IMG/VR virus record: IMGVR_UViG_2537561603_000005
DNA: 39,099 bases
Reading direction: 5' to 3' (one strand)
Source of the DNA: a virus
Taxonomy: Duplodnaviria > Heunggongvirae > Uroviricota > Caudoviricetes
Shown here: piece after piece, positions 9,635-9,677 of the stretch
Numbering within the stretch: the stretch's first letter is position 1
Layout: each line of letters begins with the position of its first letter
The notes under the pieces: generated by a model
Seen by the model: only the letters and a program-made list of their open reading frames with translations
Told to the model about the DNA's origin: nothing
Database searches by the model: none
Translations under genes and position numbers: made by a program

Positions 9635-9677
9635 TTCCGCAAATCCTGCCCCCTTTTTCCCACGGTTACGCTGACTC
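9635..9677 (+). promoter_or_regulatory. candidate late promoter upstream of lysis genes (shared motif copy 1)
   Basis: TTCCGCAAATCCTGCCCCCTTTTTCCCACGGTTACGCTGACTC; near-identical to elements upstream of I and of the esterase gene. Confidence 0.45.

Follow-up and report, generated by a model that had tools for sequence, protein, structure and literature searches.

Three related intergenic elements in a Mu-like transposable prophage of the Sp18 type are best interpreted as its late promoters, orthologous to the Plys, PI and Pmom promoters of bacteriophage Mu and presenting an altered activator box. Based on comparisons at the sequence level, we assign this reading a probability of roughly 0.85. 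The window (the whole stretch of DNA analyzed, 39,099 nucleotides in length) is a prophage of this type, with a set of genes identified through Pfam searches and a PapC usher fragment at its right edge. The three elements sit in the gaps immediately 5' of lys, of gene I and of a gene encoding a NanS-p-type esterase, and the latter element directly follows the invertase gene gin (Table 1). A first-pass annotation of this DNA had put them forward as candidate activator-dependent late promoters, a proposal that is favored by their Mu-like positions, by the fixed offset of 29-30 nt between box and -10 hexamer, by the lack of a -35 hexamer and by the conservation of this arrangement across lineages.

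Table 1. Coordinates of the putative late promoters, of the genes that they precede and of neighboring genes in the window
Feature	Coordinates	Strand	Evidence and remarks
GemA gene	8627-9139		Pfam
Mor/C-family activator gene (single), orthologue of Mu C	9210-9632	+	Pfam Mor PF08765, E 4.9e-31, full length
Predicted activator box, lys promoter: imperfect dyad TTTTCTGATATTCCGCAAA	9625-9643	+	
-10 hexamer TACGCT, predicted lys promoter	9667-9672	+	30 nt from core start; -35 match at most 1/6
lys (endolysin) gene	9704-10204	+	Pfam Phage_lysozyme, E 6.7e-36; first gene of predicted lys late transcript
Predicted activator box, I promoter: CTTTCTGAAGTCCCGCAAA	17810-17828	+	G-I gap, as Mu PI; kept in relatives
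-10 hexamer TATGCT, predicted I promoter	17852-17857	+	30 nt from core start
Gene I (head protease/scaffold)	17864-18988	+	Pfam Mu-like_Pro, E 1.3e-74; 47% identical to Mu I
N, P and Mom genes	in window; N, 26144-27502		Pfam
Gin-type invertase gene	33211-33783		Pfam; stop codon 33781-33783
Predicted activator box, post-gin promoter: TTTTTTGAATTTCCGCAAA	33787-33805	+	Position equals Mu Pmom
-10 hexamer TATTCT, predicted post-gin promoter	33828-33833	+	29 nt from core start; -35 match at most 3/6
NanS-p-type sialate O-acetylesterase gene	33869-35947	+	Pfam SASA and DUF6645; 692 aa
DUF1378 gene	36112-36294		3' of esterase gene
DUF826 gene	36330-36584		Followed by hairpin 36590-36617

A composite element precedes lys, I and the esterase gene

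The three elements originally reported were all located in the window, with the second starting at 17821 instead of 17819, a slip of 2 nt. The heptamer CCGCAAA, described from the outset as a common part, constitutes the core of the element at all three sites, starting at positions 9637, 17822 and 33799, always on the plus strand. It is often extended by nCC and is preceded, at a distance of N4, by a left arm with consensus TTnyTGA, ending in CTGA at the lys and I sites and in TTGA at the esterase site. With this arm the true element reaches 12 nt further upstream than initially delineated. Downstream of the core, a -10 hexamer (TAnnCT) begins 30, 30 and 29 nt past its first C at the lys, I and post-gin sites, respectively. 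The sequence CTGACTC, which the first-pass annotation had included in a -10-like part, lies downstream of this hexamer and is not conserved. Similarly, the T5/A5 run that had been listed among the shared parts turned out to be weakly conserved. It is absent from the lys site in the Sp18 clade, where CTCTCC or CTTTCC occupies its position, and it is broken in post-gin variants, several of which read TTTAT.

Arm and core together define an imperfect inverted repeat, TTTnCnG-N5-CnGnAAA, forming a 19-bp dyad with its axis 3 nt 5' of the core. Between 5 and 7 of the 10 pairs about this axis are complementary in each of the seven sites tested (7/7), and no other axis comes close. Taking the -10 hexamer to span positions -12 to -7, the dyad has a predicted center at -45, -45 and -44 in the lys, I and post-gin promoters. 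The best matches to a TTGACA -35 hexamer with spacers of 16-19 nt reach 1/6 positions at lys, 1/6 at I and 3/6 at the post-gin site. None of the three sites contains an extended -10 (TG), and none was listed in a scan for consensus sigma-70 promoters. In the absence of a usable -35, host sigma-70 RNA polymerase should be inactive at these promoters by itself.

The core alone is not enriched in the window, where it presents 15 matches against 9.3 expected, and only the composite pattern is therefore informative. The combination CCGCAAA-N22-24-TANNNT occurs exactly three times in the window against 0.16 expected, and none of 100 shuffled sequences reached three instances. With a 26-nt matrix, the three sites reach 31.7-33.7 bits, and the next best position of the window 14.1 bits. 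When each promoter was left out in turn, the omitted site always ranked first among the untrained positions, at 21-25 bits versus at most 14.6. A matrix derived from distant relatives alone, trained on phages with an activator 50-68% identical and excluding both the window and Sp18 clades, placed the window sites 1st, 2nd and 4th among ~78,000 positions; its only top matches with a TAnnnT hexamer at 28-31 nt were these three sites. The promoter family did not surface in an unbiased repeat search of the whole window, nor in a k-mer survey of ORF-free gaps, both of which were dominated by chance or A/T-rich matches; the ORF map used also masked the C-lys gap. These two outcomes carry no information on the family and do not speak against it.

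The element is conserved across divergent lineages

The comparative analysis encompassed loci from IMG/VR, one Citrobacter genome (a single match, obtained in a profile search of genome contigs), a Salmonella assembly and metagenome contigs, with activators 50-100% identical to that of the window. A relaxed pattern search over ~60 loci returned almost exclusively sites upstream of lys, upstream of I and after gin, and all of the lys and I sites had core and -10 hexamer spaced by exactly 30 nt. In a set of 17 non-redundant lys and I sites, drawn from ~9 lineages, information content amounted to 1.41 bits/position in the left arm, 1.69 in the core, 1.30 at +7 to +9 and 1.42 in the -10 hexamer, compared with 0.52 in the spacer and ~0.5 in the flanks. 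Over this range of activator divergence, box, arm, spacing and -10 hexamer are hence conserved and the spacer drifts. In one lineage (L069), an activator with the helix AQTQIYAVIKEQ is accompanied by an intermediate box, CCGTAAA/T. This would fit a co-divergence of protein and site, as far as can be deduced from few independent lineages.

Among known systems, prophage Sp18 of E. coli O157:H7 Sakai is close to the window, with 86% identity in the activator-lys region. It shares the gene order of the window, as do related Mu-like prophages found in E. coli and Shigella. The region comprising the activator and lys (window 9100-10300) was matched in 231 of 5,426 complete E. coli genomes, counting matches that covered at least 80% of the region at 80-99% identity. 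The activators of the Sp18 group are 83-84% identical to that of the window and all three sites are shared. The post-gin site of Sp18 differs from that of the window in its core (ACGCAAA) and -10 hexamer (TATGAT), and its lys spacer, unlike that of the window, lacks the T run. No description of Sp18 late promoters was found in publications on this prophage, as covered by an incomplete literature search.

A single Mor/C-family activator is the presumed binder of the three boxes

Searches with tblastn using Mor, C and the activator itself identified no second Mor/C homologue in the window. Aligned over its whole length, the activator (140 aa) shares 40% identity with Mu C (E 5e-38), compared with 27% for Mor. 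Its gene lies directly 5' of lys, the place that C has in Mu, and all the relatives examined present the order GemA, activator, lysozyme. The protein presents the features that characterize the Mor/C family: an N-terminal dimerisation domain, a Gly-rich beta-strand linker (GGR..Y.P.G), a C-terminal helix-turn-helix and a QPxLF tail. An alignment with Mu C and Mor shows no variation at G75, G76, Y80, P82, G84, Y121, Q136, P137 and L139. The residues of Mu C that contact DNA have been listed in a preprint on the C-RNA polymerase complex (bioRxiv 10.1101/2025.05.02.651988). Most of these are kept in the clade (R72, Y75, P77, R98, S110, Q113 and Y115) and a few are changed, with Q116 replaced by S/T/A and A119-R120 by R-N/E, a pattern that fits a related but shifted specificity. 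As the only Mor/C homologue in the window, and in line with the initial designation of its product as the obvious candidate binder, this activator is presumed to bind the three boxes.

The gap between gemA and the activator gene (window 9140-9209) contains a conserved hairpin followed by a T run (9144-9167, AAATCCCGCCACAGCGCGGGATTT), and in most relatives a TATAGT or TATATT hexamer is found after this hairpin. The separate mor gene and the middle operon of Mu are absent, as seen in the gene lists of four relatives (L002, L032, L034 and L036). Expression of the activator gene could possibly proceed by read-through of the terminator or from another promoter.

Organization of the putative lys, I and post-gin promoters

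The lys box is invariant in ~30 related loci. Its left arm overlaps the stop codon of the activator gene (9630-9632), and its conservation must be ascribed in part to coding constraint, since it coincides with the conserved C-terminal codons of the activator (Leu-Phe-stop). The left arms of the I and post-gin sites, unlike that of lys, are intergenic. Transcription from the lys promoter is predicted to start at ~9678-9680, upstream of the lys start codon. A strong inverted repeat, GTTACGCTGACTCA / TGAGACAGCGTAAC, maps to window positions 9665-9702, spanning the lys -10 hexamer and ending 1 nt before the lys ATG, and the 84-nt region around this hairpin folds at -21.9 kcal/mol (z = -3.6). The Sp18 clade has this repeat too, but it is not evident in more distant relatives. 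Transcripts from the lys promoter would be devoid of the 5' arm of the hairpin. Both arms would be present in read-through transcripts from the activator gene, in which the lys start region could be occluded.

Gene I is the first gene of the predicted head-tail late transcript. Its start codon at 17864 is supported by alignment with Mu I, is separated from the -10 hexamer by only 6 nt and is not preceded by a Shine-Dalgarno sequence. The short gap predicts a leaderless head-tail mRNA, with a start at ~17863-17865. A distance of 6-7 nt between hexamer and ATG is kept across lineages (L032, L036, L059, L060, L063, L064, L067 and L069) with activators just 50-68% identical. In L032 and L036, for which the region upstream of I was anchored on the conserved N-terminus of the protein, both box and -10 hexamer are present. 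In Mu, by contrast, ~26 nt lie between the predicted PI start and gene I, for which a ribosome-binding site is annotated. Elsewhere in the window, a perfect tandem repeat of the hexamer AGCCGA (~8 copies, window 20257-20303) is contained within the ORF at 19979-20368, where it would encode a short repeated peptide.

The box of the third site begins 4 nt past the gin stop codon. It is kept in 22 IMG/VR loci and, in its ACGCAAA form, in Sp18. Transcription is predicted to start near 33840, ahead of the esterase ATG at 33869, making the esterase gene the first of the predicted post-gin late transcript. Residues 94-688 of the encoded protein are ~65% identical to NanS-p from Stx phages, and no relationship to the Stx-phage proteins is seen for its N-terminus (residues 1-93). 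Together with the DUF1378 and DUF826 genes, the esterase gene forms a cassette (window 33869-36584) between gin and com-mom, of a type otherwise characteristic of Stx phages and their late region. An NCBIfam search returned no useful names for the genes of this cassette.

Inverted repeats at 31802-31887 and 33055-33140, 86 nt in length and 93% complementary, delimit an invertible tail-fibre segment shorter than the G segment of Mu. Crossover sites of the gix type are found at these repeats (31802-31825 and 33119-33146, the latter reading TTTCCCGTAAACCGAGGTTTTCAGGAAA). A box-like sequence on the minus strand at 31094 (CAATACTGACCCACTGCGAATCCG; 32121, minus strand, in L002), which Sp18 conserves, scores 13 bits with the matrix trained on distant relatives alone. 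It was rejected as a promoter, given that it has no -10 hexamer and runs antisense to a baseplate or tail gene, and its conservation is probably that of the coding sequence.

The PP promoter and the com-mom box of Mu have no detectable counterpart

No fourth, PP-like site was found in N at the stretch homologous to Mu PP (~27092-27150), and no further matrix match associated with a -10 hexamer was detected in either the window or Sp18. Given that no PP counterpart was found, the tail genes may be transcribed from the I promoter as part of one very long operon.

The initial statement that no such element is present upstream of com-mom was borne out by matrix scans and by comparison with Mu, neither of which identified a box there. 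The com gene (37302-37502) is separated, together with mom, from the esterase cassette by the hairpin at 36590-36617 and an antisense ORF. Its upstream region (window 37230-37301) keeps a Mu-like GATC cluster, AAATCGATCG-N7-CGATCGATT, which is kept as a near-perfect palindrome (AATCGATCG-N7-CGATCGATT, 37234-37258), and is ~28 bp shorter than that of Mu, precisely where Mu carries the C box and spacer. This shortening suggests that mom expression has been uncoupled from the late activator. With three sites against the four of Mu, no PP and no com-mom box, the system does not reproduce that of Mu one to one.

The segment between the cassette and com (window 36585-37260) is A/T-rich, and the hairpin within it looks bidirectional. 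The minus-strand ORF (36752-37054, 100 aa) presents no Pfam or NCBIfam match; Sp18 contains a similarly placed, longer minus-strand gene (ECs_4996, 154 aa).

Proposed regulatory scheme and alternative explanations

Under the interpretation of the elements as late promoters, the activator would be made earlier in the lytic cycle, bind the dyad as a dimer or higher oligomer and activate initiation at the three sites. This would generate one transcript with the lysis and packaging genes from 9704, a second with the head and tail genes from 17864 and a third with the NanS-p esterase cassette from 33869. Activator binding, start points and the activator dependence of transcription are all predicted at the three sites. 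A more elaborate reading, which we advance tentatively and to which we give less than even odds, jointly invokes a simplified Sp18-type cascade (one Mor/C activator, no Mor and three promoters), the takeover of the Pmom position, a com-mom region without C box and a leaderless head-tail mRNA. An ancestral promoter at the Pmom position would then have been taken over, leading to late expression of the NanS-p esterase cassette, and com-mom would be controlled only via the retained GATC palindrome, through Dam/OxyR-type control, and by Com.

The sites could also be promoters with no need for a Mor/C protein, either ordinary ones or ones served by a host factor or another phage protein, with the box bound by something else; candidate binders would be a host nucleoid protein or the DksA/TraR-type zinc-finger protein encoded at 10814-11107. 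The latter candidate is disfavored in that DksA/TraR proteins target RNA polymerase instead of specific DNA sites. All three sites do present a -10 hexamer, and binding of the boxes by a Mor/C protein is a prediction. In Mu, occupancy of Plys, PI and PP by RNA polymerase is possible without C, which is needed for transcription to be productive (PMC4461284). A promoter of this kind is nonetheless difficult to reconcile with -35 matches of 0-1/6 at lys and I and no TG extension, or with a box that falls at the offset of the Mu C box next to a syntenic activator 40% identical to Mu C. We consider activator-independent promoters improbable.

Non-promoter roles, as secondary Gin recombination sites, RNA structures or terminators, appear more improbable still. 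The recombination reading was considered because the element opens with a sequence (TTCCGCAAAxCC) similar to the left half of gix (TTCCCGTAAACC, 33120-33131), but only ~9 of 26 positions match a real gix, the element has no symmetric right half, and two of its three copies lie far away from the invertible segment. A hairpin does overlap the lys site; the elements have no Rfam match, however, and the other two of the three regions show no significant fold (z of -0.2 and -1.3). A fixed distance of 29-30 nt to a TAnnCT hexamer 5' of genes is, in addition, a promoter property. Chance likeness among three short intergenic stretches, which could be argued from the unenriched core, is effectively refuted by the excess of the composite pattern over expectation and over all shuffled sequences, by the leave-one-out ranking, by the recovery of the sites with a matrix from other phages and by their conservation in dozens of related loci; its probability is negligible.

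Implications

The interpretation of these elements as late promoters provides a testable late-promoter map and a putative recognition box (TTnyTGA-N4-CCGCAAA, with TAnnCT placed 30 nt past the beginning of the core) for a group of prophages, widespread across E. coli and Shigella, of which Sp18 is a member. This interpretation also points to a naturally occurring variant of the Mu C/box pair with altered specificity, which could be used with recent C-RNA polymerase structures to read residue-base correspondences, and it indicates that the NanS-p esterase cassette, otherwise found in Stx phages, would be expressed as late genes of a transposable phage. The general understanding of late transcription in Mu-like phages is unchanged by these promoters.

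Comparison with Mu and other regulatory systems

The Mu-type C-dependent late promoter system has been known since 1989, and the elements described here, as putative counterparts of its promoters with a diverged box, would extend this known system to a new clade. What is new for the clade is the sequence of the box, a layout with three promoters and the capture of an esterase cassette. The annotated late promoters of Mu lie in the C-lys gap, in the G-I gap, within N ~335-400 bp before P and directly after gin, and the lys, I and post-gin sites of the window map to the positions of Plys, PI and Pmom. The half-sites of the four Mu promoters (CCATAAT, GCATAAC, CCATAAC and CAATAAC) each start exactly 30 nt before the -10 hexamer, an offset of 30 nt in 4/4 promoters that compares with 30, 30 and 29 nt in the window.

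Mu late promoters have -10 hexamers without typical -35 hexamers (PMC2582627, PMC4461284). The C site at Pmom is an imperfect dyad centered at -43.5 (PMC2582627), and the C footprint extends from about -30 to -55, with a required 19-bp region from -52 to -34 (PMC2582627, PMC4461284). Both systems share a -10 without -35, an imperfect dyad overlapping the -35 region and a homologous activator encoded directly 5' of lys. With the Pmom dyad centered at -43.5, the Mu -10 hexamers fall at -12 to -7, and the window dyads are predicted to be centered 0.5-1.5 bp further upstream than those of Mu. The T6 run common to the Plys and Pmom spacers of Mu (PMC4461284) is echoed by the T5 run in the lys and post-gin spacers of the window, located ~8 bp further from the -10 hexamer. 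The boxes themselves differ: CCATAAC of Mu and CCGCAAA of the window agree at 4 of 7 positions. With such a diverged specificity, Mu C would probably not act on the window promoters. The two systems differ as well in number, Mu having four late promoters and the window three, with the PP equivalent missing, and in the genes downstream of the post-gin promoter, which in Mu (Pmom) drives com-mom and in the window would drive the NanS-p esterase cassette.

A further comparison can be drawn with the Mu middle promoter Pm and its activator Mor, which have in common with the predicted system the protein family (PF08765), a dyad overlapping the -35 region and the use of sigma-70 RNA polymerase. The window activator is nevertheless nearer to C (40%) than to Mor (27%), the window encodes neither another member of the family nor a distinct middle tier, and the dyad of Pm is G+C-rich whereas those of the window are A/T-flanked.

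In the Stx phages, a cassette of nanS-p, DUF1378 and DUF826 lies between stx and the lysis genes, a position that suggests Q-dependent late control (PMC10462455). The three-gene cassette is thus common to the lambdoid late region and to the window, and in both it is placed under what appears to be late-gene control. Unlike in the Stx phages, however, the cassette of the window lies 3' of a predicted C-type activator-dependent promoter in a transposable phage.
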